The position numbers and the translations under genes were made by a program. A stretch of 64,000 nucleotides of DNA. It comes from Marinilabiliales bacterium (GTDB lineage Bacteria > Bacteroidota > Bacteroidia > Bacteroidales > SZUA-534). The notes below the pieces were generated by a model, which had not been told where the DNA came from, ran no database searches, and saw only the letters and a list, made by a program, of their open reading frames with translations. The DNA is taken from assembly GCA_003512955.1 (NCBI GenBank), contig DOTG01000004.1:54087-118086 (forward strand), in the 5' to 3' direction. Below, in pieces: positions 30,990 to 54,491 of the stretch (position 1 is its first letter; each line of letters starts with the position of its first letter).

Positions 30990-31193
30990 ATCACCAAATT
31001 GGGGAGATATATACGTAAAAACTGAGTTTCTATAATTGTTGGGGCACAAAAGCAGCAAGACCACGGAGGTTTACACACATGTAATAGCAGTAAACAATAA
31101 AAAATGCGCAACCCATTGGATATATTGATGAATAAAATTACTTTGGAAAACGGATTAAAAAAAACAGTTGTAAACAAAACCGATATATACTGA
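30990..31193 (+). pseudogene. Decayed 3' remnant of a tyrosine recombinase/integrase
   Basis: From 31036 the + strand reads LLGHKSSKTTEVYTHV, the box II region, with the catalytic-Tyr codon at 31072-31074. It is preceded by an in-frame TAA at 31033-31035. After the A-run at 31099-31104 a frame shift restores MRNPLDILMNKITLEN... up to the stop at 31191-31193. Upstream similarity (GDIYVKTEFL vs D.RYIQELL) is degenerate, and no N-terminal two-thirds of the gene exists. Confidence 0.6.
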
Positions 31194-35853: not shown

Positions 35854-35969
35854 TACTTCGCATCCATACACATTGCCAAGTCGCACAAAAGCCATCACAC
35901 AGCCCAAAACTTGTCAAAGAGTATGGCTGCCCAAATGCACGGACAGAAAGCAGAGAATAAAGCACGAAA

Positions 35970-36100: not shown

Positions 36101-36132
36101 TTCATTGTAAAAGCACATATAAAAGATAGAAG

Positions 36133-36756: not shown

Positions 36757-36767
36757 ATAATAACTGG

Positions 36768-36896
36768 CTACAACACCGCATATAAAGCATTTGCGGTCAA
36801 GTGCGGACTTCAAACTATGAATAAGAAATTAACTACATTAGTAACCCGAAATGGAGTGCAAGCAAGCGCAACCGCTTCATATGCGAAACGTTAGCG
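36768..36896 (+). repeat. attC-like site 2
   Basis: The left end is CTACAAC and the right end is GTTAGCG. Inner arms are ACCGCATATAAAGC (36775-36788) and GCTTCATATGCG (36874-36885). It is a close paralogue of site 5. Confidence 0.75.
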
Positions 36897-37006
36897 GCAA
36901 GATGAAGAAAAACGACACAGCAAGACAAATACGAACGACATTGAACAGATGAATTTTAGTTGACAAAGACTATGGTTATTTAAAAACACTATAAACCGAC
37001 CATTAA

Positions 37007-37044
37007 ATTCCTAAAAGTATTTATTTTTAAACAGTTTTAGGAAT
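37007..37044. promoter_or_regulatory. Inverted repeat ATTCCTAAAA-N18-TTTTAGGAAT upstream of the DUF4143 ATPase gene
   Basis: Perfect 10-bp arms at 37007-37016 and 37035-37044, 19 bp before the ATG. A Bacteroidota -7-like TATCTTTG (TAnnTTTG) follows at 37051-37058. Confidence 0.4.
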
Positions 37045-37062
37045 TTTATTTATCTTTGCCCT

Positions 37063-38280: not shown

Positions 38281-38288
38281 GGGCGAAC

Positions 38289-38417
38289 CGATAACGCGGT
38301 ATAAAACATTGGGGTTTAAGTGGTTATTCGAGCATTCTGACCCGCATCAAGTTTGGTATAACTGGACAGGAAAGTAGCCCGCAATCCCCAACGATTTCAT
38401 ACACACATCCGTTGGCA
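38289..38417 (+). repeat. attC-like site 3
   Basis: The left end is CGATAAC and the right end is GTTGGCA. Inner arms are GCGGTATAAAACATTGGGG and CCCCAACGATTTCATACACACATCC. It is homologous to site 1. Confidence 0.7.
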
Positions 38418-38461
38418 ATAATTAGAAGGAACATCATCATAACTATAATATATATAATAAA

Positions 38462-39079
38462 ATGGCACTACCTTCATCTTACACAATGGCTTATGGTTCT
38501 CTAAGTCAATTTTTTGATAAAATTAGAGACGGTCAAGCCCCTGATAAGTTTACAAACCAGATTTTAAAAGATTTAGGATTTAAATCCAATAATCATAGAG
38601 CATTCATTCCGATACTCAAAGCACTTGGCTTTTTATCTGCAGATGGTTCACCGACAAAACGATACCATGATTACAGAAATCACTCACTATCAAGAGAAAT
38701 TTTGGGACAATCCTTAAAAGAAGCATATTCTGATTTATTTCTTATTACTTCTAAACCTGGAAGCAAAGACAAGGATTTAATAAACGGAAAGTTCAAGAGT
38801 TATCACAATGTAAGTGAAAATGTAGCAAAACACATGACAAATACTTTCTACTCTCTATTAGCATTAGCTGATTTAGATGGTAAAAGTCAAAAAAATGAGG
38901 AACTTCCAAAAACTGAATCTAATCAAGAAATTGAAAAAGAACCTGAGAAAAAAGTATTATCAAAGAAAACTGGAGACTTAGGACTTCATTATAATATTCA
39001 GATTCATTTACCTGCAACTAAAGATATAGAAGTATATAATGCAATTTTTAAATCTATAAAAGACCACTTAATTGAATAA
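38462..39079 (+). CDS. DUF5343-like protein (family recalled from memory)
   Basis: 205 aa. The N-terminal region is FFDKIRDGQAPDKFTNQILKDLGFKSNNHRAFIPILKALGFLSADGSPTKRY. An acidic or low-complexity linker follows, then a small C-terminal domain LGLHYNIQIHLPATKDIEVYNAIFKSIKDHL. It overlaps the next ORF. Confidence 0.55.
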   Translation: MALPSSYTMAYGSLSQFFDKIRDGQAPDKFTNQILKDLGFKSNNHRAFIPILKALGFLSADGSPTKRYHDYRNHSLSREILGQSLKEAYSDLFLITSKPGSKDKDLINGKFKSYHNVSENVAKHMTNTFYSLLALADLDGKSQKNEELPKTESNQEIEKEPEKKVLSKKTGDLGLHYNIQIHLPATKDIEVYNAIFKSIKDHLIE

Positions 39080-39665
39080 GACAATAAATAAAAAAGACAT
39101 TAGAGACTTCTTTTTTAGAGGTTTAATGTTTGAATCAGAAGCAACCGAATTTCAAAAAGCTGGAATTCAGATTGGCGCAAGTTCTACTTATGCAGAAGAG
39201 CAGTTACTATCAGAATCACTTGCCCCCTTTAGTATTTCTAGGAGAAACAAAGCACTTGAAATGGCTAGATTATATTCTGTTCTTCATTGTTTTGAGAATG
39301 AAATTAGAGAATTGATTAGGGAAACATTAAGTGAAAATGAAGGTCTTGATTGGTGGACAAAACTACCAACTAAAATAAAAACTCATGCAGAGTCAAGACA
39401 AGAAATTGCATTTAAGGATTCTTGGCTTGAGGGTGAAAAAGAAGATTTACTTGGTTTTATTGATTTTGGCATGCTTGCTTCAATCATTATAGAAAAATGG
39501 CAATATTTTAATAGTATTATTCCTTCACAGCATTGGTTAAAACAGAGAATGGAGGAATTAGAAAAAACTAGAAATTTTATTGCTCACAATCGAATGTTGC
39601 TTCCAAGTGAGTTTCAAAGAATATATATGTACATTGCCGACTGGAATAGAGTAATTGGATTATAA
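39072..39665 (+). CDS. HEPN-domain protein (Swt1-like type, Rx4H motif)
   Basis: 197 aa from TTG 39072, with an alternative ATG at 39126. The C-terminal TRNFIAHNR gives R-x4-H (R at 39570-39572, H at 39585-39587), the HEPN RNase signature. It shares a cassette with the upstream gene. Confidence 0.6.
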   Translation: MNKTINKKDIRDFFFRGLMFESEATEFQKAGIQIGASSTYAEEQLLSESLAPFSISRRNKALEMARLYSVLHCFENEIRELIRETLSENEGLDWWTKLPTKIKTHAESRQEIAFKDSWLEGEKEDLLGFIDFGMLASIIIEKWQYFNSIIPSQHWLKQRMEELEKTRNFIAHNRMLLPSEFQRIYMYIADWNRVIGL

Positions 39666-39673
39666 CTAACTAT

Positions 39674-39803
39674 TGCCAACATGGTATAGTGCATGCGGGT
39701 TTTGGTGGGTTGCGGGTGTGTGTGACTCGTAAAAAAAGTTTTTGTAAATTGATAAGGAATCGCCTCGAAATCCCGCACAACACCATACCATCAAACGTTG
39801 GGC
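39674..39803 (+). repeat. attC-like site 4
   Basis: The left end is TGCCAAC and the right end is GTTGGGC, a perfect GTTRRRY. Inner arms are ATGGTATAGTGCATGCGGG (39681-39699) and CCCGCACAACACCATACCAT (39772-39791). Confidence 0.75.
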
Positions 39804-39826
39804 TTAATAATTAAAAAACATGAGAA

Positions 39827-40699
39827 ATGAATAAAATATTGTTTGTGACTTGGATTTCCTTTATAACAATGTTTTCATGTAAAACTGACCAGAAAAAGGA
39901 TGCTGATTTTAAAAATGAATCGAAATCTAAGGAATATCTAAATTTAAAAGACTTTTCTGAAAAATTTAGTGGTGTTTGGCTTCCTAAGAGTTATTTGTAT
40001 TCAATTGAAAAATCTAAATCTGCGTATTTATCACATAAAGCAATTCCGATAATTTCTGAGCTATCTATACATACAAAGGATTTAAAAAATGACACCTTAT
40101 ACATCGGTGCTAGTCTTAATAACCATGAAGGTTACGGATTTAATATTTGGAATACTGGACAATTGAAAGGTAATGAATACCTGAATAACATTTTTGATTG
40201 GGAAAAAGAGAATAAATATCTTTTTGTATATAATATAGCAGACACAACGATTTCTATAGTATTTAAAGGTATTAAAGACAGTATTGAAAGTCGAATTGAA
40301 TTTGTCAAAGTGCTTGAATATGAGTTTGTTTCTAACTACGGTGGAATTGGATATGATTACATTTCTCGAAAGTTTATAATTAATGGTAAATATCAAGTAC
40401 TCGACTCCAACAAAAATGACCTTGGAGTTGCTAATTTTGAGCCAATGACTGGAAAAATAAAGGATTTTAACTATGGTTATTATACAATTGCAACAGATTA
40501 TATAGCTAACCCTTGCTATCCAAGTGACCATATTATTCTGAGACTTAACCCTGAAGAATATTTAACTCAAAAATATCTGAGTATTATAAATAGGAATGAC
40601 ACGATTTTATTATATGAAACTGAGGAAATTGTAACTGATTCGACTTATGATTTCGGTTTGACTAGCATTGTATATTACATGATTAATAAAAATTACTAA
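39827..40699 (+). CDS. Hypothetical lipoprotein, single-gene cassette
   Basis: 290 aa. A signal peptide plus lipobox-like FSC (LFVTWISFITMFSCKTDQ). No family recognised. Confidence 0.5.
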   Translation: MNKILFVTWISFITMFSCKTDQKKDADFKNESKSKEYLNLKDFSEKFSGVWLPKSYLYSIEKSKSAYLSHKAIPIISELSIHTKDLKNDTLYIGASLNNHEGYGFNIWNTGQLKGNEYLNNIFDWEKENKYLFVYNIADTTISIVFKGIKDSIESRIEFVKVLEYEFVSNYGGIGYDYISRKFIINGKYQVLDSNKNDLGVANFEPMTGKIKDFNYGYYTIATDYIANPCYPSDHIILRLNPEEYLTQKYLSIINRNDTILLYETEEIVTDSTYDFGLTSIVYYMINKNY

Positions 40700-40829
40700 G
40701 CACAACACCGCATAATAAAGCAGCTGCGAGAAAGTGCAAACTTGAAATTATGAATAAGAAATTAACTATATTGGTGAAGCAAAAGGAAGTGCAAGAAAGC
40801 GCAACAGCTTCATATGCATAACGTTGGGC
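40700..40829 (+). repeat. attC-like site 5
   Basis: The left end GCACAAC begins the base after the stop codon. The right end is GTTGGGC. Inner arms are ACCGCATAATAAAGCAGCTGCG and GCGCAACAGCTTCATATGCAT. It is a close paralogue of site 2. Confidence 0.75.
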
Positions 40830-40850
40830 AACATTTTAGAAACCTAATTT

Positions 40851-41405
40851 ATGAATTACGATTTTAAAAATAAAAAAGAGGAATTTTTGGTAGTAGAATT
40901 TCTTCAATATAGCATAAATGCGGGACTTCAGACTAGAAATGAAGAATTTCCAATATATAGACTAGAAAATCTAAGCTTAGATTTTGCTAAACGACTTAGA
41001 AATGAAATCAAAGATTTTCTGCTTGTTTACTTAAAAGATTTTAATCGAGTAGATGAAAATGGGCATGTATCAAGAATAATAGAACTTTCGGATAAAATAT
41101 CAAAAAAATATTCCGAGATACTTTATAAAAAAAGGTTCAGGATTGGAGTCAGTCAAAAAATTGTAAATCTCTTCTTAAAGTATATGTGGACAAGTGGTCA
41201 AATTGAAATGCCATTTCACTGTCCAATTGATAATATTATCAAGACAAAAGTTCTTAAAGGGATAAAGAATAAGACATTGAAAGATTGGACAGAATTTGAT
41301 AAGATTACTGATTACATGAAGTATATAGACATAATCAGGCAAAAATCGAAAGATTTAAACCTAACTATTGCTGAATGGGAATTAGAGAACTGTAAAAGAA
41401 AATAA
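40851..41405 (+). CDS. Hypothetical soluble protein, single-gene cassette
   Basis: 184 aa. The only notable block is RIGVSQKIVNLFLKYMWTSGQIEMPFHCPIDNII. No confident family. Confidence 0.45.
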   Translation: MNYDFKNKKEEFLVVEFLQYSINAGLQTRNEEFPIYRLENLSLDFAKRLRNEIKDFLLVYLKDFNRVDENGHVSRIIELSDKISKKYSEILYKKRFRIGVSQKIVNLFLKYMWTSGQIEMPFHCPIDNIIKTKVLKGIKNKTLKDWTEFDKITDYMKYIDIIRQKSKDLNLTIAEWELENCKRK

Positions 41406-41541
41406 AAACGTTGCCCAAAGAGCGGTATAGCCAATAAGGGTTTCAGTGGCGTTCGAAAGTTTGTGGCTCGCATCAACTTTCGTGCATCTTGAAAGGGTAA
41501 AGCTCCGAATTCCCTTACTTGCCTTACTGCAAACGTTATGT
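41403..41541 (+). repeat. attC-like site 6
   Basis: The left end TAAAAAC overlaps the stop codon and the right end is GTTATGT. Inner arms are ...GCGGTATAGCCAATAAGGG and CCCTTACTTGCCTTACTGC. The central AAAGCTCCGAATTC resembles sites 3 and 7. Confidence 0.55.
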
Positions 41542-41637
41542 GCAAGGCGAAAAGACCCATCTACCAAATAAACGAGGATAATTTAAAGATTTTTTAATCC
41601 GTGAACGATTTGTAATAAAAAAGTTGATAAAATATTT

Positions 41638-41678
41638 GGTTTGTATTCCAGACTTAATTAGGTTTGTATCGCAGACTT
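41638..41678 (+). promoter_or_regulatory. Tandem direct repeat GGTTTGTATnnCAGACTT x2 (23-bp period) upstream of the 41704 operon
   Basis: GGTTTGTATTCCAGACTT lies at 41638-41655 and GGTTTGTATCGCAGACTT at 41661-41678, 26 bp before the ATG. This is a candidate operator for the wHTH protein encoded in the operon. Confidence 0.4.
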
Positions 41679-41703
41679 GTTTTATTAATTTAACTTAAAA
41701 ATC

Positions 41704-42315
41704 ATGGAAACACAACAACAAAATTTTGATTCATTTGATGAAAATCAATCACTTCAGGTGATTAAAGAAATGATTCAGGTTTCTCAAAAGAAACTAAAAA
41801 ACGATGGTGTTCTATTTATCTTATGGGGATGGATTATATTTTATAATTACATTTCATGGTATGTGATAAATAATATTGTAACAACCTACCAAATTTATAA
41901 GGGATTTGAATATTTTGCAAAAGGCATAGTAGTATTTGCATTTGCATTTTCAATCTATTATATTTTTAGAAAAAGTAAAAAAGTGACAACCTATATTGGA
42001 ATATCACTAAGATATGTTTGGATTTCATTAATAGTATGTCTCTCATTAGTCAATATGATTATATTTAATACGATACATGAATTTAATCCTACACTACAAC
42101 ATCCTATTTTTATGGTATTAATGGCCTTTGCAGTTGTGATTACCGGAGGAATATTGCGTTACAAATTAATCACCTTTGGAGGTATAGTTTTTGGCCTCTT
42201 AGCTTATATATGTATTTATTTTAGCGTAGAGATTCAAATGCTAATTGAAGCACTTGCTTGGTTAATTGCGTTTATTATTCCTGGCCATTATTTGTATGCA
42301 ACACGTAATAGCTAA
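41704..42315 (+). CDS. Hypothetical polytopic membrane protein
   Basis: 203 aa with five or six transmembrane helices after a short polar N-terminus. It is followed 5 bp later by a wHTH gene. Confidence 0.55.
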   Translation: METQQQNFDSFDENQSLQVIKEMIQVSQKKLKNDGVLFILWGWIIFYNYISWYVINNIVTTYQIYKGFEYFAKGIVVFAFAFSIYYIFRKSKKVTTYIGISLRYVWISLIVCLSLVNMIIFNTIHEFNPTLQHPIFMVLMAFAVVITGGILRYKLITFGGIVFGLLAYICIYFSVEIQMLIEALAWLIAFIIPGHYLYATRNS

Positions 42316-42320
42316 ATACC

Positions 42321-42623
42321 ATGTTCAAGGAATTAGACCCAATATTGCATTCACAAGTAAGGCTTGCTATAATGTCGTTATTGATGAGTGTAAAATCTGC
42401 TGAATTTAGTTTTTTGCTGGAAAATATTAACACAACAAAAGGAAATTTGAGTTTTCAGCTAACAAAGTTGAATGAAGCAGAATATATTAATATCAAAAAG
42501 TCTTTCAAAGGCAATTATCCATTAACAACTTGCGAAGTTACTCAAAAAGGGATCGATGCTTATGAAATTTATGTCAAATCTATTGATGAATATTTTAAAG
42601 AGTTTAAAAACAATAAAAAATAA
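42321..42623 (+). CDS. Winged-helix transcriptional regulator (HTH_34-like)
   Basis: 100 aa. LDPILHSQVRLAIMSLLMSVKSAEFSFLLENINTTKGNLSFQLTKLNEAEYI is typical of small ArsR/PadR-like wHTH proteins. Confidence 0.7.
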   Translation: MFKELDPILHSQVRLAIMSLLMSVKSAEFSFLLENINTTKGNLSFQLTKLNEAEYINIKKSFKGNYPLTTCEVTQKGIDAYEIYVKSIDEYFKEFKNNKK

Positions 42624-42627
42624 AATT

Positions 42628-43251
42628 ATGAAAACATTTAACCGGAAAACTATGAAAGCAATATTTTTAGTATCCATGTCTTTTCTATTTTTCATTATTT
42701 CATGTGATTCACAAACAAATACAAATGGACAAAAAGTTGTATTTGGAATACATGAAGTTGTAAAAGTGGATGTAATACCAGTTGCAATAATTGATACCCT
42801 AAAATCCATGGGTGTTCAAATTGAAAGCAATCCACAAAAACCTGTTCTTGGTTATATTACCATGAAAGATTCTCTGGTTCTTCAATTTGATTTATCTAAA
42901 GAAAACATTAAACTAGTAAAAATGATTCAGATGACTGATGAAGAACAAAAATATTTCGTGTTAGCTGGGATTAGACCAAACACTGTTATTAGCATGTCGT
43001 CTATAAAAAAAACCAAAGCTAATGGAAACAATGTGGAGATTTATTTCAATTCGAAGGGTGCTACAGATTGGGCGGATTTTACAAAACAAAACATTGGAAA
43101 ATCGATAGCATTCATCATTGACAATCAAATTTATGCAATTCCTGTAATAAATGGTGAGATTAAACATGGGATTGCAATGATTACTGGACTTAATAATGAA
43201 ACCATTGCAAAAAATATTTCGCAGGCATTGAATTTAAGCATACCTAAATGA
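42628..43251 (+). CDS. Lipoprotein with a SecD-head-like domain
   Basis: ORF 42556..43251. I prefer the start at MKTFNRKTMKAIFLVSMSFLFFIISC (42628), with the lipobox Cys. The C-terminus GATDWADFTKQNIGKSIAFIIDNQIYAIPVINGEIKHGIAMITG resembles the SecD P1 head pattern, from memory. Confidence 0.45.
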   Translation: MKTFNRKTMKAIFLVSMSFLFFIISCDSQTNTNGQKVVFGIHEVVKVDVIPVAIIDTLKSMGVQIESNPQKPVLGYITMKDSLVLQFDLSKENIKLVKMIQMTDEEQKYFVLAGIRPNTVISMSSIKKTKANGNNVEIYFNSKGATDWADFTKQNIGKSIAFIIDNQIYAIPVINGEIKHGIAMITGLNNETIAKNISQALNLSIPK

Positions 43252-43356
43252 TATTTTTTTAATACAGATAAAAAATTGATTATAAACAACGCCCAGCACA
43301 TAACATGCAACATTGTAAAAAGACAGCTTCGAACGATAAATAATTGAATTGAAATC

Positions 43357-43672
43357 ATGTTAGTCCTTAAAATAGATATTTTAAAATACATCAGTGACGA
43401 CCAACCCGGATTTGCTGAAGCCAGATTTAAAGATGCATGGGATAAAGAATTTATGGTTCATGATAAAGTTTCCCATTTTTACTAAAGAATATTTAGATTC
43501 TAATAGTAAATACCCTCAGCCTGGCATTATTGCTTGCTTGAAAATTAAAGAGTTTGTTGATAAGGATGGTCGAAGAATTATTACAATAAACACAGAGAAA
43601 CCTTGGGCTGTGGAAACTATTGATGGTATTTATCAATTTGATATTTTACCTAACCAATTAACAGAGATATAA
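43357..43672 (+). pseudogene. Small cassette gene interrupted by a +1 frameshift
   Basis: Frame 1 reads MLVLKIDILKYISDDQPGFAEARFKDAWDKEFMVHDKVSHFY* (43357-43485). Frame 2 continues as FPIFTKEYLDSNSKYPQPGIIACLKIKEF... to 43672. Removing one T from the T-run at 43469-43471 (GTTTCCC) gives a continuous ...VHDKVPIFTKEY... protein. Confidence 0.5.
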
Positions 43673-43695
43673 TTAGTAAGACTGATTTATGAAAT

Positions 43696-43977
43696 ATGAA
43701 ATATGAAATTGAAATAATGAAGCCTTTATTTAGACTTTTGTGGCTTCAGTCTGATAATTATAAATTGCCAATCCAAAATATGGGATATAATTTAATGGAA
43801 GTTGGAAAATTTACTGGTCGGACAAGAGATATTATTAAACATTACCTTGACTACTTAATTGACCAAGGATTTATGGAGCTTGTCTCAGAGAAACCTTTAT
43901 TGTATCAGTTTACAGATAAAGGAAGACTAATAAAAGGTATGGATGATATTGAAAAAATAATAAACAACGTTGCATAA
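43696..43977 (+). CDS. Hypothetical small protein (possible wHTH)
   Basis: 93-aa ORF. The segment TGRTRDIIKHYLDYLIDQGFMELVSEKPLLYQFTDKGR is winged-helix-like. Confidence 0.4.
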   Translation: MKYEIEIMKPLFRLLWLQSDNYKLPIQNMGYNLMEVGKFTGRTRDIIKHYLDYLIDQGFMELVSEKPLLYQFTDKGRLIKGMDDIEKIINNVA

Positions 43978-44013
43978 CACAGTGTATGCCATTTTAAGAC
44001 AACACAACAAACA

Positions 44014-44583
44014 ATGACAGAACTTGAAAAATACATACAAACTTATTTCGGTGTCAACAAAGACGACTTGACGAAAATCAGTTCGTTTTTCAAACCTTCG
44101 GCATTGAAAAAGGGCGACTATTTTCTCAAAACTGGTAGGCATTCCGACAGACTTGGTTTTGTTCAGTCAGGTATTATTAGAGAGTTCGTTTTCATTGACG
44201 ACAAAGAAGTAACAAAGTGGATTTCAACAAAAGGTTATTTTGCGGTGGACTTATCCAGTTTTATTTTTCAACTTCCTGCTCGTTGGAACATTCAGGCATT
44301 GACAGATTGTGAACTTTATATCATTGACAGCAAGGGTTATCAAAAAATTGGTCAAGTAATTCCTCGTTGGGCAGAATTAGAAAAACTATTTATAGCAAAG
44401 TGTTTTACTGTTTTGGAAGACAGAATTATTACGCATCTGTCAATGACAGCGGAAGAAAGATATAATCATCTTTTTAATTTTAATAAAGAATTGTTTAACC
44501 TAGTGCCTTTGCAATACTTGGCTTCAATGCTTGGTATGACACCTGAAACATTAAGCAGGTTAAGAAAAAAAGCGGCTGGCTGA
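44014..44583 (+). CDS. Crp/Fnr-family (cNMP-binding domain) transcriptional regulator
   Basis: 189 aa with a cNMP-binding beta-roll (KKGDYFLKTGRHSDRLGFVQSGIIREF) and a C-terminal HTH (LQYLASMLGMTPETLSRLRKK). Confidence 0.8.
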   Translation: MTELEKYIQTYFGVNKDDLTKISSFFKPSALKKGDYFLKTGRHSDRLGFVQSGIIREFVFIDDKEVTKWISTKGYFAVDLSSFIFQLPARWNIQALTDCELYIIDSKGYQKIGQVIPRWAELEKLFIAKCFTVLEDRIITHLSMTAEERYNHLFNFNKELFNLVPLQYLASMLGMTPETLSRLRKKAAG

Positions 44584-44656
44584 ACTTCTTGATTTTTGTC
44601 AAGAGCAAGCCTTGGTTTTGTGCAGACCTTTGTAAGGTTAATTAAAACAAAGGACA

Positions 44657-45169
44657 ATGTTTACAAAATCAATTTTACTAACCGCAATTAGCTTGGCAAT
44701 TTCAACTGGTTCATTTGCACAAAACAATTCAAAAATGAAAAGTATTAACAACAGCGCACCTGTAAAGTGCAGCAAGACAATCACTATTAATGCAAACAGC
44801 GAAAAAGTATGGGCTGTAATGACCAACATTAACAATTGGGCAACTTGGCAAACTGACATCAGTAAACCGAAGCTGAATGGAGAATTAAAGCCAGAAACAA
44901 CATTTGACTGGAAAACTGGTGGAGTAAAAATCCATTCAACACTTCATACCGTTGAACCATTTAAGAAATTGGGTTGGACGGGAAAAACATATGGTTTGTC
45001 TGCGGTACACAACTGGACATTGACTGAAACAAATGGACAAACAAATGTTTCGGTTGACGAAAGTATGGAAGGTTTTTTTGCAGGGCTTTTGAAAAAACCA
45101 TTCAGCAAAAACTTGGAAAAAGGTATGCAAAACTGGCTCGACTTATTGAAACAAGAATGTGAAAAGTAA
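44657..45169 (+). CDS. SRPBCC/START-like (polyketide cyclase family) protein with signal peptide
   Basis: 170 aa. The pattern ITINANSEKVWAVMTNINNWATWQTDI...WTGKTYGLSAVHNWTL is typical of SRPBCC domain proteins. Confidence 0.65.
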   Translation: MFTKSILLTAISLAISTGSFAQNNSKMKSINNSAPVKCSKTITINANSEKVWAVMTNINNWATWQTDISKPKLNGELKPETTFDWKTGGVKIHSTLHTVEPFKKLGWTGKTYGLSAVHNWTLTETNGQTNVSVDESMEGFFAGLLKKPFSKNLEKGMQNWLDLLKQECEK

Positions 45170-45245
45170 CACGAAACAAAGAAATACGGCATAAACAGCA
45201 CCTACCACGTTGGATGCAAGCCAGGAAAAGCCCTTTTCGATAGTT

Positions 45246-45257
45246 ATAAAGTGTAAA
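45246..45257 (+). repeat. 12-bp direct repeat ATAAAGTGTAAA, left copy
   Basis: Identical to 47291-47302. It lies in a sequence resembling an attC left arm (CGATAGTTATAAAGTGTAAAA vs site 3 CCGATAACGCGGTATAAAAC), 7 bp from the fabF stop. Confidence 0.6.
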
Positions 45258-45264
45258 AAAGTTA

Positions 45265-46509
45265 TTATTGATACTTTTTGAAGACCGTTGTTGTTGTATG
45301 GCCACCAAACCCAAAAGTATTATTTAAAGCAACAGAAATATCTTTGTGACAGGCCTTATTGGGTGTAAAATTTAATTGTTGATTTATGGTTGGGTCAATT
45401 TCATTTAGATTGATTGTCGGGGGTATTATATTGTGAACAATAGCTTTTACACAAGCAATGGATTCAATAGCACCTGCTGCCCCTAATAAATGACCAGTCA
45501 TTGATTTTGTTGCACTAATTTGTATTTGGTCTAACGATTGTCCAAAGACTTTTTCTATAGCCTTACACTCACTTATATCACCAATAGACGTTGATGTAGC
45601 GTGAGCATTAACATACGTAACATCATTTGCATTAATCCCCGCATCTTTTAATGCTCCTTCAATGGCTAATATTGCACCTAATCCCTCTGGGTGTGTTGCT
45701 GCTACATGATATGCATCAGATGCAGATCCATATCCAGCTAACTCACAGTAGATTTTAGCACCCCTGTTAATTGCGTGTTCCCGTTCTTCAATCATTAATA
45801 CTCCCGCACCTTCACCTAAAACAAAGCCATCCCGGTTTTTATCAAATGGGCGCGATGCAGTTTCAGGTGATTCGTTCAATGTAGATAATGCTTTCATGGA
45901 ATTAAATCCCCCAACTGCAGCCTGTGTTATTGTGGCTTCGGAACCACCTGCTAAAACAATGTCGGCCCTTCCTAATCGAATAATATCAAGTGCATTGGCT
46001 ATTGCATTATTAGATGCTGCACATGCTGAAGTTATAGCATAACTAATTCCATGCAATCCATAACGAATAGAAATTTGTCCGCTAGCGATATTTGATATCA
46101 TTTTTGTTATAAAAAATGGATTAAATCTGGGAGTTTTATGGTTCTCTCCGAAACTTAGAAGTTCCTCTTCAAATGTTTGCATGCCGCCAATTCCAGTCGC
46201 CATTATAACTCCAATTCTATTGCGGTTACAAGTATTTAAGTCAATCTTTGAGTCATTCAAACATTCGTCAGTGGCGGCTAAAGCATATAGCGTAAATAGG
46301 TCCATTTTACGAGCTTCTTGCTTATCTAAATATTGTAAAGGGTTAAATCCTTTTACTTCACAAGCGAATTTTGTTTTATGTTTGGTGGTATCAAATTTGG
46401 TAATTGAACTTGCACCACTTTTCCCACTTATAAGATTTCCCCAAAAATCATTTACATTATTGCCTATCGGAGTTATTGCCCCAAGGCCAGTGATTACCGC
46501 TCTTTTCAT
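45265..46509 (-). CDS. fabF: Beta-ketoacyl-ACP synthase II
   Basis: 414 aa. The KAS II blocks are complete: the active-site Cys region AITSACAASNNAI, then NAHATSTSIGD and GHLLGAAG. It is oriented opposite to the cassette array. Confidence 0.9.
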   Translation of the reverse strand: MKRAVITGLGAITPIGNNVNDFWGNLISGKSGASSITKFDTTKHKTKFACEVKGFNPLQYLDKQEARKMDLFTLYALAATDECLNDSKIDLNTCNRNRIGVIMATGIGGMQTFEEELLSFGENHKTPRFNPFFITKMISNIASGQISIRYGLHGISYAITSACAASNNAIANALDIIRLGRADIVLAGGSEATITQAAVGGFNSMKALSTLNESPETASRPFDKNRDGFVLGEGAGVLMIEEREHAINRGAKIYCELAGYGSASDAYHVAATHPEGLGAILAIEGALKDAGINANDVTYVNAHATSTSIGDISECKAIEKVFGQSLDQIQISATKSMTGHLLGAAGAIESIACVKAIVHNIIPPTINLNEIDPTINQQLNFTPNKACHKDISVALNNTFGFGGHTTTTVFKKYQ

Positions 46510-46545
46510 AATTATTTATTTAAAATGATAAAATGTTTCAAAATA

Positions 46546-46565
46546 TACTTACTAATAAGTAAGTA
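46546..46565. promoter_or_regulatory. Palindromic operator-like site TACTTACTAATAAGTAAGTA between tetR and fabF
   Basis: Perfect 8-bp arms TACTTACT/AGTAAGTA. The same motif occurs at 47165-47184. Confidence 0.55.
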
Positions 46566-46580
46566 GTATGTGTAAAATTT

Positions 46581-47159
46581 TTATGGTTTTAAATCATCAA
46601 GAATTGATTGTTGCAAGCACTTATAATCAATTTTTTCCATTATTCCGGTTAATTGAAGGCTTGCAACTAAACTAGAGAAGATAATTAAAGCTTTACTATC
46701 CGGCGCATCTTTAAATGCAAAAACCTCATTATTCCGTCCCCGGTCAAGAAGTTCCGTTAACCATTTTAATATCATCTCAATCATTTTTTTTAGCTCTACT
46801 TTTGTGGTCTCGTTTAAAGTGTTATAATCAGGACTTAACGAACCAACCAAACATTTTTTATGTTCACGGTAACTTTTAACATAAATTTTAATGAACGTTT
46901 CAAGTTGTTGCCATTCATTAAACTTTCTGTTAACCATATTATCAACCATCTCTTCAAAGCGTTGAATATTAGTTTTAACGATGCTGGTTCCCAGGTTCTC
47001 TTTCGATGGAAAATAATAGTGGACGGCTGCATTTTTTATTCCTAATTCCGAAGATATGTCCTGGTAACTGAAAGCGTTGTACCCTTTGGTGCGGATAAGG
47101 TTTTCTCCTAATTCTAATATTTTTTCTCTTGTTACTGACATTTTGCAAAATTTTGACAC
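46581..47159 (-). CDS. TetR/AcrR-family transcriptional regulator
   Basis: 192 aa. The N-terminal HTH is GYNAFSYQDISSELGIKNAAVHYYFPSKENL. It lies directly upstream of, and co-oriented with, fabF. Confidence 0.85.
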   Translation of the reverse strand: MSKFCKMSVTREKILELGENLIRTKGYNAFSYQDISSELGIKNAAVHYYFPSKENLGTSIVKTNIQRFEEMVDNMVNRKFNEWQQLETFIKIYVKSYREHKKCLVGSLSPDYNTLNETTKVELKKMIEMILKWLTELLDRGRNNEVFAFKDAPDSKALIIFSSLVASLQLTGIMEKIDYKCLQQSILDDLKP

Positions 47160-47164
47160 AAATA

Positions 47165-47184
47165 TACTTACTAATTAGTAAGTA
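47165..47184. promoter_or_regulatory. Perfect 20-bp palindrome TACTTACTAATTAGTAAGTA upstream of tetR
   Basis: Perfect 10-bp arms, 6 bp upstream of the annotated tetR start codon. Confidence 0.6.
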
Positions 47185-47285
47185 AAAAATATTTCTTTAT
47201 TTTTTATTTGTTAACTTCGGGTCACATTTTGGAAAAATTCTATGATAGGTTTAACTACATTTGGGCAAAAAGAAAAAAGGCCTGT

Positions 47286-47405
47286 TGCTAATAAAGTGTA
47301 AATACCTTGCGGGTTTTAGGTGGTTATCCAGGGAGGCACCGCCTGCAAAACCGGATAAGTGAAAAGCTCCGCAATTCTTACGGTACATAGCCTCGGTCGT
47401 TGTAT
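47286..47405 (+). repeat. attC-like site 7 (degenerate left end)
   Basis: The body aligns with site 3 (TTGCGGGTTTTAGGTGGTTATCCAG vs ATTGGGGTTTAAGTGGTTATTCGAG; CCGCAATTC... vs CCGCAATCC...). The right end is GTTGTAT at 47399-47405. The left end is GCTAATA instead of ...AAC. Confidence 0.5.
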
Positions 47406-47490
47406 GCCAGAAACCAGCCCGATAATCCAACGTAAAAAAGATTTTAAATTTCTTATGTAAATTAAAAAATTGAAGAATATTTTCACTATG

Positions 47491-47526
47491 TTTACAAAAT
47501 GCAAGCAATTGCTTGCATTTTGTAAA
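47491..47526. promoter_or_regulatory. Perfect 36-bp palindrome TTTACAAAATGCAAGCAA|TTGCTTGCATTTTGTAAA (TetR operator candidate)
   Basis: Both 18-bp halves are exact reverse complements. The site ends 9 bp before the ATG at 47536. Confidence 0.7.
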
Positions 47527-47535
47527 CAATAATTT

Positions 47536-47901
47536 ATGGAATGGTACATACCTATATCGCTTTTACCTGGAATTGCTTTAATAATTCTTTCTACGAGCAA
47601 TTTTATTATAGCATTAAACAATGAAATAAAGGAATTGAAAAGTAACTATGATTTGTACGAGAAAATAATCAACTTGAAAATCATTCAATTAAAACGACTC
47701 AGCATTGCTATTAGTGGCTTGTATATAAGTGTACTATTATTTACTCTAACAGGTCTATTGAGTTGGTTTTCAGCTCTAAAGCCAGTTATTTTTAGCTCGC
47801 TTATTTTTTCAATGACATGTATGTTTTTTTCAGTAACCTTCCTTATTTCATTTGCAGTTAGGGCAATTAAAATTAGACATTTACATTTAAAAATTCATTA
47901 A
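47536..47901 (+). CDS. DUF2721-like small membrane protein
   Basis: 121 aa. WYIPISLLPGIALIILSTSNF, a coiled segment and two transmembrane helices. Family from memory. Confidence 0.6.
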   Translation: MEWYIPISLLPGIALIILSTSNFIIALNNEIKELKSNYDLYEKIINLKIIQLKRLSIAISGLYISVLLFTLTGLLSWFSALKPVIFSSLIFSMTCMFFSVTFLISFAVRAIKIRHLHLKIH

Positions 47902-47904
47902 TCA

Positions 47905-48456
47905 ATGGAATACTCAGACAAGGCATTAAATATTTTGGAAACTGCCAGAAAGCTTTTTTCACAGAAAGGTTTTAAAGCGGTAACAACACGGGAAATTGCA
48001 AAAGAAGCCAATGTGAATGAAGTTACAGTTTTTAGAATATTTCAGAGTAAAGAGATTCTATTTGAGCATGTAATCTCGCAAATGATTTTTAAGCCCAAAA
48101 TATCAGAATATATTGATGATAACGAGAAAGACCTAAACAAATATTTGAATGGAGTAGGTAATTTAATTCACACTATCATTTTAGAAAATATTGATTTATT
48201 TAAAATTGAATTGTCAGAGAATAAACGAATGCAAAATTTAAATTTAATTAACCGTTTTCCAAATGAGATAAAAGACAAAATGATTAAATATCTAATTAAC
48301 GTACAAAAGCAACCTGAAAAAGAAGCAATATTGTTCTCAATCTCTTTTATGACGGCAGTTCATGGGTTATGTATGAATTTGTATTTGATAAAAACATTTA
48401 CGCCTGCACCTGACTTCAAAGAGTGTTTAGATTTTATCATTAAGAAGTTCTATTAA
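47905..48456 (+). CDS. TetR/AcrR-family transcriptional regulator
   Basis: 183 aa. The HTH is GFKAVTTREIAKEANVNEVTVFRIFQSKEIL. Confidence 0.85.
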   Translation: MEYSDKALNILETARKLFSQKGFKAVTTREIAKEANVNEVTVFRIFQSKEILFEHVISQMIFKPKISEYIDDNEKDLNKYLNGVGNLIHTIILENIDLFKIELSENKRMQNLNLINRFPNEIKDKMIKYLINVQKQPEKEAILFSISFMTAVHGLCMNLYLIKTFTPAPDFKECLDFIIKKFY

Positions 48457-48462
48457 TTTTTT

Positions 48463-48490
48463 TTACAAGAAATGCAAGCAAGTGCATACA
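48463..48490. promoter_or_regulatory. Second, imperfect copy of the ACAAnAAATGCAAGCAA operator half-site
   Basis: TTACAAGAAATGCAAGCAAGTGCATACA shares the left half of the 36-bp palindrome. It sits between tetR and the Fe-S gene. Confidence 0.5.
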
Positions 48491-48508
48491 TTAAAAAATA
48501 AAAATATT

Positions 48509-49480
48509 ATGAATGAGTTGATTAAAAAGATGTTTCAAAATAACAATCAAAATACCCCAATGTATTTTGAAGCATTAACCGGACAATTAGGTCAGTTGTT
48601 AAAACGTAACGATATTGTTCGACATGGAAAAAATTCTGTGAAGCAAAATGGATTCGTCGGAAGCCCAATGGAAACTTTGCCATTGTTCAAAAAAATAACG
48701 ATGCTTCCCACCGGATTGCGTCTTTATCAGCAAATAAAAAAAAGTTTAACATTCCAACCCAATAAACCTTTTAAAGACAAAATCTGTGATATAGAGTTCA
48801 ATGAATTAAAAATATTTCTAGAAAGTTTGAATATAACAAGTTATGGTTTTACAAAAGTAAATAGTGATAATATTTTTATTGACAGGGGAATCCTTTATGA
48901 CAATGCAATAGTGATTTCAATTCAAATGCCACTTGAAAAAATTGCAAAAGCCCCAAGTTTTGAAACGATGGTAATGATTGAAGATACCTATTTGCAAACT
49001 GGTGAAATTGTCAATAAAATAGCTGGCTTTTTAAGAAAAAATGGATATGGTGCTCATGCAGGTCCGGGTTTAGGGGGCATGACAAATTACCCTATGCTGG
49101 CTAAAGATGCTAATATGGGTGAATTCGGCAGGCATGGTTTGCTAATTTCACCCGAAAGTGGAGCATGTCATCGTTTGGCAGCGGTATATACGAACATCAA
49201 TAATTTTCCGTATGAGAATACAAACGAACATCAATGGATTAAAGAGTATTGTCATAATTGTGGAATTTGCATTAAAAAATGTCCTAATAATGCGATTTTA
49301 GAGACACCTAAAACAACAATCAATACTCGTGTCAGACACATTGAATACGATAAGTGTATGTCCTGTTTCAATCAAAATTTTGGTTGCTCAGTGTGCATTA
49401 AAGTTTGCCCTTTTACTAAATCTGGATACGATAAATTACTTGAAGTACATTTAAAAAATCAAAGCAGAATCTTAAATTAA
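48509..49480 (+). CDS. 4Fe-4S dicluster-domain protein (reductive-dehalogenase/QueG-like architecture)
   Basis: ORF 48482..49480. The GTG at 48482 lies inside the operator-like site, so I prefer the ATG at 48509 (MNELIKK). It has two ferredoxin-type motifs, CHNCGICIKKCP and CSVCIKVCP. Confidence 0.65.
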   Translation: MNELIKKMFQNNNQNTPMYFEALTGQLGQLLKRNDIVRHGKNSVKQNGFVGSPMETLPLFKKITMLPTGLRLYQQIKKSLTFQPNKPFKDKICDIEFNELKIFLESLNITSYGFTKVNSDNIFIDRGILYDNAIVISIQMPLEKIAKAPSFETMVMIEDTYLQTGEIVNKIAGFLRKNGYGAHAGPGLGGMTNYPMLAKDANMGEFGRHGLLISPESGACHRLAAVYTNINNFPYENTNEHQWIKEYCHNCGICIKKCPNNAILETPKTTINTRVRHIEYDKCMSCFNQNFGCSVCIKVCPFTKSGYDKLLEVHLKNQSRILN

Positions 49481-49491
49481 TTAAAATAAAT

Positions 49492-50331
49492 ATGAACTCA
49501 TTTGACATTAACAGAGTACATTGGGAAAAGGGGAAATTCCAGCCTTGGTACCTAAACGAAAAACCAGTTAATTTAAAAGATTTGAATTACAATGGTGATG
49601 AAGAACTAATTGTTATCAACTTATCAGGTAAACAATACGGATTCTTGTTACGAGAAGTTGTTTATCATCACATTATACAAGGAAAATTAAACGATGTAGA
49701 TTTTATACTTACATTTTGTGGGGTTTGTAATGCTGGTGTATTATTAAGCCCTTTAATAAAAAACAAACTTTATCATTTCCGGGAAACCGGAGTATATAAT
49801 GGGCAGCAGGTTTTTGAAGACATAGAAACGCATACTTTGTGGAACCATTTAACCGGCGAAGCACTTTACGGAGAGCTTAAAGAAAACACGTTGGAGTATA
49901 TCGGTTCGCTAAACATGACAACAATTTCAGGAGTAAATAAAACTTTACCAGACTTGCCGATTTATATTTCAGGTAGAAAAAAGATTTATAGAAATATAAT
50001 GCGATTTGTTATCAAGGTTATTTTAGGTAAAAGGAATAAAAATTGGTTGCCGCCACATTTTCAAAAAACCTTACCCGAAGTTAGTAATGAATTACCTAAA
50101 ATGACAATGGGACTTGCTATAAAGATAAAAGATAAGCTACGGTTTTATCCTGCTGAATCTTTTAAAGAAAATGAACTTAGAGATGAATTTAATGGGACAA
50201 AAATTACCGTTAGAATTGAGAACAAAGTCCCTAAAGCAATCACAGAAACTGGTGAATATCCATTCCAATTATTTACCAGATGGTATGCTTTTATCTTAAC
50301 TTACCCAAATGGAGAACTATTTAAAGAATAA
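49492..50331 (+). CDS. DUF3179-like protein
   Basis: 279 aa. DIETHTLWNHLTGEALYGELKENTLEYIGS matches my recollection of the DUF3179 core (D..T.S.W...TGEA..G.L). Confidence 0.55.
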   Translation: MNSFDINRVHWEKGKFQPWYLNEKPVNLKDLNYNGDEELIVINLSGKQYGFLLREVVYHHIIQGKLNDVDFILTFCGVCNAGVLLSPLIKNKLYHFRETGVYNGQQVFEDIETHTLWNHLTGEALYGELKENTLEYIGSLNMTTISGVNKTLPDLPIYISGRKKIYRNIMRFVIKVILGKRNKNWLPPHFQKTLPEVSNELPKMTMGLAIKIKDKLRFYPAESFKENELRDEFNGTKITVRIENKVPKAITETGEYPFQLFTRWYAFILTYPNGELFKE

Positions 50332-50465
50332 CGTTACTTAATATCGCATATAAATCATTGTGAAATTGTCCGTTATGAAATATATCCATTTCGCATCGGC
50401 GTTTGTATCGGCGGATAGGAACAAAACCCGCAATCTACTACATTTTCCGCCTGCTATCGTTAGAA
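50326..50465 (+). repeat. attC-like site 8 (terminal)
   Basis: The left end GAATAAC overlaps the stop codon and the right end is GTTAGAA at 50459-50465. It has the family blocks ATCGCATATAAATC (cf. site 2) and CCCGCAATCTACTAC (cf. site 3), but arm complementarity is weaker than in sites 1-5. The core gene begins 6 bp later. Confidence 0.5.
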
Positions 50466-50470
50466 GCAAG

Positions 50471-52335: not shown

Positions 52336-52511
52336 TACTATTTTATTTTGGCCGAAAATAAGTAAAATCTTGAAGCAATTGGTGCGAAAATGATAAGTAG
52401 AAATACTGAATTTGAAAAAGAACTATGAAATTTTACGATGCGAATTTTTAAAATCTTATTGAAATTATTCTCTGATATATTAACTTCGTTTAAAACTTAA
52501 ACCAACATTTC

Positions 52512-54491
52512 ATGAAGTATTTATTAAGCATCACCATTATCATATCTGCGAATTTCAGTATTCTATCACAACGATTAGATACAACTATCTTTAATTCAGC
52601 ATTCGAGAAACAGTTGTTTCAAAAGGTTATTGATTCGCAGGTATTTGATCCAATGGAATTATTTTTTTCAATGAATTATCATGAGTCATCGGTGAATCAA
52701 TCAAAAAATAAGTTAAATAATTTTTATAAAGAAATTGCCCCTGAATTAATTAGCAAACAGATAAAAAAGCAGATAAAAACGATTTACAAAAGAACCCACT
52801 CTCATTTTTTAACAAAGTACGAAGAGAAATCATTTTTTGAAAATATTTTTGAAAATGGAACATTTAATTGTGTATCAGCCACGGCATTATATGCTCTTGT
52901 ACTTGAAACTTACCATATTGAATATGTAATAAAGGAGACACTGCAACATGTTTATCTAATAGCCGATCCCAAAAGAGATCAGGTTTTTATTGAAACAACA
53001 CTCCCATCAAAAGGGACTTTTTATGTAGATGAACATTACAAGAAAAATTATGTGGAATATCTTGAAAACAATAAAATTATCTCCGAATCGGAATTCAAAA
53101 CACAAAGTACAGAGTCGTTATTCGATAAATATTATGACGAAAATAAAACAATCACCTTAAAAGAACTTGCCGGAATTCAATATTTCAATGATGGTATTTT
53201 TAATTACGAGGCTTCAAAATTTGTCGAGGCTTCAAAAAGTTTTGAAAAGGCATTCATACTTTACCCTTCAAATTCAATAAAATTAGCTTATCATACTGCA
53301 TTATTAGCATTATTAAACGAACAGCACCAAACCAAAAAATATTCAGCAATTACCTTGGCTAAATTTATTAATCTCAATAAAAATAACAATGAAGCTAAAA
53401 CGCTAACTGAAGATTATTTTGGACTTTTAACAGAAGAACTTGTGATCAATCACCCGCAGTTAGGATACTATGAAAAACAATATCATGACTTTCAGGATTA
53501 TATTTCTGACTCTATTGATATTAAGATAATTAACCAGCAGTATTTTTACTATACAGGTTACGCAAATTATATTCAGCAGGACTTACCTAAAGCCCTTGTA
53601 AACCTTAACAAGTCATTTGAACTTAATCCTGATAACATAAATACAAAACAATTGATACAAGAGGTGGTATCAAACCATATTTTTAAAGATGTCAATCGGG
53701 AACGTGAACTCGATTCTTTAAAAATATATTTCAGTATGTATCCTTTTTTGTTAAAAAATGACAAATTTCAAATTTATTTCACCTATTGTTACCTGAGAAT
53801 CATTGGTGAAGCGATGCATTATAACGATGTACCCAAAGCAATGAAGTATTTATCAGAATTTGAAGACCAAATTAAACTTTACCCTGATATTGTTATGAAT
53901 GATAAATATGTTGAACTAGCTTATGGAGAACTTGCATCATATTATATAAGAAAAACAAAATATAATGAAGCTGAAAAATACTATCTGAAAGGGTTAGCAT
54001 TGGCACCCAATTCTTATGAACTTAAAAAACAAAAAGAACTCTTATCAAGTCAAAAAACAGGCCTGAATGAGTATTTGAATGATTCGAAAAACTATGATAA
54101 AATCAATAATGAATTGGCTCTTGAAATTCCCAAAAACCCAGATGAAAAGTCCGGTTTTAAGGAATCGATGGATACCTTTTTCCCCGGCAGTTGGGAAGCG
54201 GTTAATTTTATTGAAGATGGACAAACAAAGGCAGTTCCAAAGGATGAAAAACTGGTAATAATAGCCAAACCAAACAACAAATTGGAATTTAATATGGGCG
54301 GTATAAAAGAAACCGGGAGATGGGCAATCCGGAACAAAGGTCATCTTTTATATCTGATTCCAAAGGATAATGAAAATGACTATCTGGTATTTAAAGTTGT
54401 TGAAATTTCAAAAAATACACTGAAACTCCAGGCCTATGATGGTGGTAAACTGGAAAATATAATCGTTCAGTTTAAAGCGATAACTCAATAA
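52512..54491 (+). CDS. Hypothetical secreted protein with a transglutaminase-like Cys/His region and TPR-like repeats
   Basis: 659 aa with a signal peptide. The putative thiol-protease-like core is GTFNCVSATALYALVL...LQHVYLIADP. Helical repeats follow, e.g. YNEAEKYYLKGLALAPNSYE. Confidence 0.5.
   Translation: MKYLLSITIIISANFSILSQRLDTTIFNSAFEKQLFQKVIDSQVFDPMELFFSMNYHESSVNQSKNKLNNFYKEIAPELISKQIKKQIKTIYKRTHSHFLTKYEEKSFFENIFENGTFNCVSATALYALVLETYHIEYVIKETLQHVYLIADPKRDQVFIETTLPSKGTFYVDEHYKKNYVEYLENNKIISESEFKTQSTESLFDKYYDENKTITLKELAGIQYFNDGIFNYEASKFVEASKSFEKAFILYPSNSIKLAYHTALLALLNEQHQTKKYSAITLAKFINLNKNNNEAKTLTEDYFGLLTEELVINHPQLGYYEKQYHDFQDYISDSIDIKIINQQYFYYTGYANYIQQDLPKALVNLNKSFELNPDNINTKQLIQEVVSNHIFKDVNRERELDSLKIYFSMYPFLLKNDKFQIYFTYCYLRIIGEAMHYNDVPKAMKYLSEFEDQIKLYPDIVMNDKYVELAYGELASYYIRKTKYNEAEKYYLKGLALAPNSYELKKQKELLSSQKTGLNEYLNDSKNYDKINNELALEIPKNPDEKSGFKESMDTFFPGSWEAVNFIEDGQTKAVPKDEKLVIIAKPNNKLEFNMGGIKETGRWAIRNKGHLLYLIPKDNENDYLVFKVVEISKNTLKLQAYDGGKLENIIVQFKAITQ

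Follow-up and report, generated by a model that had tools for sequence, protein, structure and literature searches.

A reverse-oriented TetR-FabF unit with its own predicted operators in a partly decayed integron-type array of a Marinilabiliales bacterium

A stretch of 64,000 nucleotides from a Marinilabiliales bacterium (GenBank assembly GCA_003512955.1, contig DOTG01000004.1, positions 54,087 to 118,086 of the forward strand) was analysed; it is called the window below, and was the only part of the genome sequence examined. Our subject is a pair of its minus-strand genes, tetR and fabF, coding for a TetR-family regulator and a β-ketoacyl-acyl carrier protein synthase II (KAS II), which lie in an array of attC-like recombination sites and are bracketed by two copies of a 12-bp direct repeat. 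A first-pass annotation of the same DNA had offered two accounts of this bracket: insertion of the module into an attC arm, or two attC left arms flanking it. The account that we favour, with some reserve, is that a self-promoted, reverse-oriented tetR-fabF cargo sits in a partly decayed, integrase-less array of the integron type, and that the left copy of the repeat is the remnant of a truncated attC. The bracket repeat looks like debris of recombination sites, not an insertion scar, and is best explained by the ordinary decay of such sites.

The pair lies in a low-GC island (31000-50400, about 30% GC as against 42-47% outside) that is enclosed by core genes. Every island gene from 31372 to 50331 is on the plus strand except fabF and tetR, an observation of the first-pass annotation that held when the open reading frames (ORFs) were confirmed. 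The fabF gene (45265..46509, minus strand, 414 aa) encodes a protein matching the N- and C-terminal ketoacyl-synt families of Pfam (1e-56 and 7e-36) and scoring 565.9 bits against the NCBIfam fabF equivalog TIGR03150 (cut-off 493.75). The protein aligns with Thermus thermophilus KAS II (1j3n) across 412 residues, and the Cys/His/His motifs SACAAS, NAHATST and TGHLLG are all present. Judged from the triad motifs and the equivalog score, it is predicted to be a catalytically complete KAS II. The tetR product (186 aa), a putative NemR-like repressor of the TetR family, matches the TetR_N helix-turn-helix (HTH) domain, PF00440, with E=3.4e-10. Its ORF as listed runs from 46581 to 47159 on the minus strand, and the GTG at 47159 sits within the -7 box of the promoter. 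The ATG at 47141 is more likely to be the start, giving a gene at 46581..47141, as orthologues begin MSVTREKI.

To place the pair among its relatives, 80 FabF loci retained by a genome scan were sorted by upstream neighbour. In 28 of the 80, tetR lies directly upstream of fabF, and the proteins are 65-84% (TetR) and about 68-81% (FabF) identical to those of the window. By these matches, the tetR-fabF pair is found in at least 28 other Bacteroidales genomes, among them Prolixibacteraceae, Tenuifilaceae, Lentimicrobiaceae and other lineages. FabFs linked to acpP, present at 34 loci, are 55-59% identical to the window FabF. In a neighbour-joining (NJ) tree that included 19 of these 34, the acpP-linked proteins formed a separate clade, and the window FabF fell inside the TetR-linked clade, next to that of Tenuifilaceae CYCD. 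The two clades differ in their C-terminal motif, GGHT[ST]TT in the TetR-linked proteins and GGHN in the acpP-linked ones, and at seven clade-specific positions, including Ala304 beside the catalytic His. The marks of a housekeeping fabF are thus lacking in the window copy: its upstream gene is tetR, not acpP, and it stands outside the acpP-linked clade. Clade and synteny together identify it as a putative paralogue, and the earlier description of a stand-alone, repressor-controlled FabF is supported. Two further groups were seen in the scan. In one (L049, L050, L053, L054, L068 and L072; Algoriphagus, Niabella, Tangfeifania and others) the gene upstream of fabF codes for a distant TetR (34-42% identity); in the other (L041-L046) neither tetR nor acpP is upstream, and L046, the only locus read, has a fabH-like gene there. 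No paper on a TetR-fabF unit in Bacteroidetes was found in the literature.

What the genomes share is confined to the interval from about -40 of tetR through the fabF stop codon. Each genome has different flanks, the neighbours elsewhere are ordinary, unrelated chromosomal genes, and no member of the attC family was found near the pair in the loci of other genomes. The first-pass annotation had tied the module to an attC context. Since relatives of other species carry the pair with other flanks and without attC, that tie does not hold for the module as such, and the attC link is specific to this lineage. The same comparisons bear on the possibility that tetR-fabF was inherited vertically in the Marinilabiliales lineage, perhaps as the main fabF, with cassettes gathering on both sides of it. 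The pair's nearest relatives do come from related families within the same taxonomic order, and all strain variants seen carry it. However, the GC content at third codon positions (GC3) is 0.24 for fabF and 0.32 for tetR, within the range of the island genes (0.18-0.35) and far under that of the core genes (0.44-0.52), so that compositionally the copy belongs to the acquired island. No other genome compared shows synteny with the location, the FabF clade stands apart from the acpP-linked one found across Bacteroidota, and the unit is enclosed in a low-GC island bordered by core genes and a recombinase relic. Vertical inheritance at this site is accordingly the most improbable of the readings weighed here.

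Both genes are preceded by the same palindrome, as the first-pass annotation had pointed out. The two near-identical 20-bp copies lie at 47165-47184, ahead of tetR, and at 46546-46565, in the tetR-fabF intergenic region. By chance, 0.01 matches would be expected. The first, predicted operator O1, is the perfect palindrome TACTTACTAATTAGTAAGTA and overlaps the -7 box of the tetR promoter (TATATTTG, 47159-47166, minus strand). The second, predicted operator O2, is followed by a near-consensus -7 box, TATATTTTG. The palindrome ACTTACTnATnAGTAAGT is found upstream of tetR in most orthologous loci and is often repeated between tetR and fabF, such a second, intergenic operator being present in several relatives too. 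In 17 aligned genomes the promoter geometry is kept, with TTTG at -33, then the operator, then TAnnTTTG at -7. An HTH domain and a palindrome overlapping the promoter are what characterizes a TetR repressor with its cognate operator, and we assign the two sites to this class as putative operators.

The regulator was also compared with known TetR proteins. Its best NCBIfam matches were CurR, AcuR and Bacillus FadR, all far under the cut-off, while the closest solved structures were 3on4, 2g7s and NemR (4yze). To E. coli NemR (PDB 4yze), 160 residues could be aligned with E=7.7e-9, and in this alignment Cys97 of the window TetR matches NemR Cys106; the cysteine is kept in 34 of 36 homologues. 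NemR Cys106 is the residue of a sulfenamide switch that senses HOCl (PMC7464077). Cys97 may therefore be taken as a lead for thiol-based sensing, though not as a demonstration of it. The setting of the two regulators differs, the window TetR standing beside a fatty acid synthesis enzyme and NemR controlling the detoxification genes nemA and gloA. Acyl-thioester ligands are known for other TetR regulators related to lipids, and by this analogy an acyl-thioester would be an equally possible ligand.

The array around the pair was defined by eight repeats of about 135 nt that follow ORFs. All are imperfect palindromes with complementary arms and end in CGTTRRRY. Five lie at 35971-36103, 36766-36898, 38281-38419, 39666-39805 and 40700-40832, and they are followed on the plus strand by attC_f (41406..41543), attC_g (47279..47408) and attC_h (50332..50467; family hidden Markov model (HMM) E=1.7e-7), the last of which marks the right edge of the island beside core lipid genes. 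Detection relied on arm-wise nhmmer profiles. With these, attC_g, the site beyond tetR, was recognized by both its left arm (E=2.7e-4) and its right arm (E=3.3e-6). It is a complete attC-like site, with R'' TGCTAAT at about 47286-47292, reading AAT instead of AAC, and R' GTTGTAT at 47399-47405. Pairs of sites elsewhere in the array share 81% identity over 111 nt. No Rfam family matched the repeats at either gathering or E-value thresholds, and no paper containing the sequence of the element was found. When folded with DNA parameters, sites b, d and f formed long, bulged hairpins (z -0.9 to -2.0), which sites c, e, g and h did not (z +0.3 to +1.2); RNAalifold with MAFFT produced no usable consensus structure, either for the eight window sites or for 80 family members. 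A supposed attC left-arm start at 47408-47445 had no HMM support against shuffles and was dropped.

Evidence that these sites act as cassette boundaries came from strain variation and from the cassette ends. The homology of two strain variants, L009 and L010, with the window reaches as far as 41529, about 5 nt from the G|TT crossover of attC_f at 41535, and a different cassette follows. In five cassettes of the window, the first 10 nt were also found to be the reverse complement of the cassette's own R'', with 7, 10, 9, 9 and 9 of 10 positions matching for cassettes c, d, e, f and the short-attC cassette, respectively. The L010 cassette behaves likewise (GTTGTACGTAACC against GGCTACGTACAAC). 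It was by this rule that the short candidate attC (43290..43372, plus strand; 9/10 complementarity), which the family HMMs did not detect, came to light. Its R'', AGCACATAAC, pairs with the start of the cassette that follows attC_f, and its R', GTTAGTC, lies at 43359. Complementarity was only 4/10 in the cassettes ending in attC_b, attC_g (4-5/10) and attC_h. For attC_g, the want of a cognate 5′ end fits loss of the beginning of the cassette. No variation was seen at attC_g among strains, and the flanks of the module are identical in the strain variants. The sole flank difference from L009 and L010 is a 5-nt change in repeat number (CCAGC) at 47409-47420, just downstream of the site.

The attC_c-type element (window 38294-38423; loci L105-L224) is unlike usual attC sites in being unusually invariant. 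More than 120 metagenome contigs, drawn from many habitats, carry its roughly 125 nt almost unchanged, the loop among them. Variable ends, RYYY-AAC ... GTT-RRRY, enclose the element, which occurs mostly in 1-3 copies per 5-14 kb and stands in low-GC DNA (31-40%) next to a variety of genes (restriction-modification, methylase, Crp-like and XRE).

No ORF for a tyrosine recombinase was found in the window. What remains is a relic of 16 residues, LLGHKSSKTTEVYTHV, from the C-terminal box II of a recombinase of the Xer/IntI type (31036..31083, plus strand). A stop codon precedes the relic, which shares its strand with the cassettes and stands in a 603-nt spacer at the island's left edge. Integrases at L009 and L116 were considered as IntI and rejected, since they scored 45 and 79 bits against TIGR02249 (cut-off 265). 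At L009 (16380-17852), a 415-aa tyrosine integrase of the SAM_5 type, accompanied by HTH_17 and a primase, abuts a truncated attC right end, ...ATACCGCCAACCGTT; at L116 (1294-3824), a 357-aa integrase near tRNA fragments abuts a truncated attC right end, ...CATACCGCCATC. These junctions suggest that the attC-like element may be an integration hot spot for other mobile elements. Clusters of attC sites without an integron integrase are known as CALINs, and with only a relic and no IntI, the array of the window is CALIN-like. In Bacteroidota, integrons are known but rarely reported.

We then examined the bracket itself. The 12-mer ATAAAGTGTAAA is exact at 45246-45257 and 47291-47302, as first described, and has no further copy in the window. 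Being AT-rich, it is not rare window-wide if one mismatch is allowed, and at least two such matches were given by 31 of 100 shuffles. For the two intergenic regions in question, however, 1 of 1000 shuffles produced an exact match of at least 12, and a gapped local alignment of 45226-45257 with 47275-47302 (32 nt, score 16) was reached by 4 of 1000. In the complete attC_g, the right copy covers the last part of R'' and the first part of L''. The left copy closes a 32-nt patch (45226..45257, plus strand) that resembles the start of the attC_g left arm and stops 7 nt from the fabF stop codon. Similarity runs 20 nt leftward of the 12-mer, with indels, and ends sharply at its right edge, as is expected of a deletion breakpoint. 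The 12-mer was also considered as a signature of the attC family and rejected, there being no exact copy in about 210 other loci and only one-mismatch copies in random contexts.

These observations bear directly on the insertion account, in which the 2.0-kb segment entered a pre-existing attC left arm and the repeats are a target-site duplication or an attL/attR core left by a trans-acting recombinase. An exact 12-mer bracket is improbable by chance between these two spacers, and the integrases abutting truncated attC copies at L009 and L116 indicate that such sites attract other recombinases. Yet 45258-47290 holds only fabF and tetR, with no terminal inverted repeat, transposase or integrase. 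attC_g is complete without the left flank, which offers no better R'' partner for the right arm, and the continuation of similarity to the left of both copies, with indels, but not to the right, is better suited to two related arms than to a recent duplication. Nor was an empty site found. In exact-protein look-ups of both neighbours (24 contigs read for each, of 47-48 indexed blocks), all contigs carried the module, and a metagenome scan for the left flank plus 12-mer followed by any non-A base gave 0 matches. We regard insertion with duplication as distinctly improbable and less likely than the cassette-fusion account; of the two original proposals, the flanking by two attC left arms, which fits the 32-nt similarity, is the better supported. 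The accompanying statement that both 12-mers sit in attC-left-arm-like sequence stands for the right copy, which is part of attC_g. It does not stand for the left, which went undetected by HMMs and forms no hairpin.

A second feature of the left flank must also be accommodated. Some 30 nt upstream of the left 12-mer lies an R'-like end, ...CCACGTTGGATGC (45204..45220, plus strand), with the core GTTGGAT at 45209-45215, which fits GTTRRRY. Its score of 3.8 with the right-arm HMM was reached by 0 of 200 shuffles of the spacer (p<0.01). This end may possibly be both the end of the preceding cassette and the start of the fabF-tetR cassette. The unit to its left (43991..45193, plus strand, convergent with fabF) consists by Pfam of a gene for a Crp-like cNMP-binding regulator (44014-44583) and one for an SRPBCC protein (44657-45169). 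It is 84-85% identical in DNA to copies at L227 and L228, which lie among mutS, spoU and other core genes, and this homology stops at 45184-45193, 15-24 nt past the SRPBCC stop codon. The Crp-SRPBCC genes would thus be a second regulator-plus-effector unit brought into the array. Because their homology ends by 45193, the 71 nt between the imported units comprise two orphan pieces, an R' core and a fragment of a left arm.

The R'-like end allows another reading, in which tetR-fabF is an ordinary reverse-oriented cassette of 2.19 kb with the R' core at 45209 (G|TTGGAT) and the R' G at 47399 as its limits, and the identity of the 12-mers is due to chance. Integrons are known to include cassettes that bring their own promoters and have reversed ORFs, the other end of the segment carries a complete attC, and the 12-mer, with one mismatch allowed, is not rare across the window. 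Against it, there is no attC body upstream of 45209, where about 40 nt without a hairpin separate the SRPBCC stop codon from the core. The supposed 5′ end, GTTGGATGCA, matches the attC_g R'' at only 5/10 positions, and for this particular pair of spacers the 12-mer and the 32-nt similarity are both significant. An ordinary cassette is therefore unlikely, though less so than insertion. On the first-pass view that the module was not captured as a normal cassette, the evidence points both ways: the poor 5′ complementarity (4-5/10) speaks for it, and the core at 45209 with attC_g, which together would delimit just such a cassette, speaks against it.

Two other candidates in this region were rejected. 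An inversion between the 9-nt pair ACGTTGGAT (45207-45215) and ATCCAACGT (47423-47431) was considered; the pair, which matches the consensus for R' and R'' and closely flanks the module and attC_g on the outside, is probably due to chance (about 0.08, as a rough estimate), and the reconstructed order leaves no attC after fabF. The R'-like sequence GTTGTATGGCC in the 3′ end of fabF (45293-45303) was considered as derived from attC; it is native code for the C-terminus GGHTTTTV, and is also present in L039 and L040.

Taken together, the observations are most simply accommodated by a model in which we infer the deletion history, the repression, the nature of the inducer and the physiological role. 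Positions of about 45265-47190 would make up an independent unit of two genes that regulates itself and lies in the distal, partly decayed portion of the array. A reverse-oriented cassette with its own promoter would carry tetR-fabF, with 47279-47408 as its own attC. The attC of the preceding cassette would have been deleted to fragments, up to 7 nt from the fabF stop codon, resulting in cassette fusion, and the bracket repeat would reflect the likeness of two related attC left arms. TetR dimers would occupy O1, over the -7 box of tetR, and O2, upstream of fabF, repressing both genes. A signal, perhaps an acyl-thioester or a thiol-reactive compound acting at Cys97, would release them. A second KAS II would then be made, independently of any integron promoter.

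Several points weigh against this model. The left patch has no partner arm, gave no hairpin in the fold analysis and is invisible to the family HMMs, so it may be a chance resemblance. attC_g is a weak, diverged member of the family (E=0.048 with the 103-sequence family HMM), shuffled sequences fold as well as its single strand does (z=+0.66), and its cassette is the one without a cognate 5′ end. A variant without the module, or with an intact upstream attC, was not found in the look-ups and scan described above. No integron integrase was found in the window or in 120 loci with the same attC family, so that the integron assignment is based on the behaviour of the sites. Finally, a search for the host's housekeeping fabF with an acpP-linked Bacteroidales FabF as query returned Prevotella-like proteins only, which were uninformative.

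There is a slim chance that the locus is a preserved intermediate of cassette genesis or growth. Complete, self-regulated chromosomal units such as TetR-FabF and Crp-SRPBCC would have been recruited beside attC by non-canonical recombination of arms, the 12-mer with its 32-nt fragment and the orphan R' core being the scars.

The arrangement is readily compared with known systems. Like the cassettes of sedentary chromosomal integrons and CALINs, those of the window have imperfect-palindrome sites ending in GTTRRRY, switch between strains at G|TT and, in part of the cases, have 5′ ends complementary to R''; cargo with its own promoter, predicted here, is also shared, whatever its position in the array. 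Unlike complete integrons, the window retains a 16-residue recombinase relic and no IntI. The tetR-fabF cargo differs from integron cassettes in being a regulator-plus-enzyme pair that elsewhere is an ordinary chromosomal unit, and in standing amid attC debris without a cognate 5′ end. In class 1 integrons, fused cassettes with a truncated attC have been described. The likeness lies in a partial attC between two coding units that share a downstream attC; here, unlike in those fusions, about 32 nt of left arm and a separate R'-like core remain, and the history is a reconstruction.

Regulators of the TetR family also control condensing-enzyme genes in other bacteria, namely E. coli FabR (fabA/fabB) and mycobacterial MabR (the fasII operon with kasA/kasB). 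As with these, a TetR repressor is encoded beside a KAS gene and presumably acts through a palindromic operator. Unlike them, the window TetR has no detectable specific sequence relationship to either, and its predicted target is an extra paralogue instead of the core operon for the type II synthesis of fatty acids. PtmP3 and PtnP3 are self-resistance copies of FabF in platensimycin and platencin producers, and the window FabF resembles them as a putative additional homologue apart from the housekeeping locus. No biosynthetic gene cluster was found beside the pair, however, either in the window or in about 30 other genomes, where the neighbours are unrelated housekeeping genes, so the pattern of producer-type self-resistance is absent. 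The pair is instead a conserved regulon of a whole order, which argues for a physiological role, such as chain elongation that is induced by stress or serves as a back-up. Protection against KAS inhibitors, as an acquired role, is possible, and resistance to FabF inhibitors through this FabF, as first proposed, is speculative.

Other features of the window were recorded. The island is bordered on the left by the core gene for an HHH_3 protein and on the right by GNAT and acyltransferase lipid genes, followed by mraZ, rsmH, ftsL and a penicillin-binding protein (PBP) gene. It opens with an ORF of 1493 aa (31372-35853; GC3 0.20) that has no Pfam match and is followed by the first attC-like site. 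By Pfam, the neighbours of the module are Crp-SRPBCC, DUF2721, TetR2, Fer4 and DUF3179. The tetR2 gene (47905-48456, 183 aa) belongs to the cassette after attC_g. A perfect 40-nt palindrome, TGTTTACAAAATGCAAGCAA|TTGCTTGCATTTTGTAAACA, lies at 47489-47528 upstream of the DUF2721 gene, and a related site is found at 48470-48492 upstream of the Fer4 gene. With its palindromes, the tetR2 cassette looks like another self-regulated module. Beyond the island, a gene for a TPR protein (52512-54491, GC3 0.27) is missing from strain variants L009 and L010, and 52417-54404 is taken as an insertion of its own between core genes, specific to the strain.

Accessory FabF paralogues, TetR autoregulation, self-promoted cassettes and decayed attC sites are already known kinds. 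What is new is the definition of this regulon and its operator, and the occurrence of the regulon as cargo of an attC array in Bacteroidota. A widespread Bacteroidales regulon is thereby defined, made up of a NemR-like TetR, a predicted 20-bp operator and a dedicated FabF paralogue, and a regulator-plus-enzyme unit of this type can, it would seem, travel as self-expressed cargo of an integron-type array. If the cassette-genesis reading were true, the locus would show how genes enter the cassette pool of Bacteroidota integrons together with their regulators. Should Cys97 respond to thiol-reactive compounds, the unit would serve as inducible back-up to an enzyme that is attacked at its catalytic cysteine by electrophilic inhibitors, e.g. 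cerulenin. Such a role, if true, would give the idea of resistance a concrete form.

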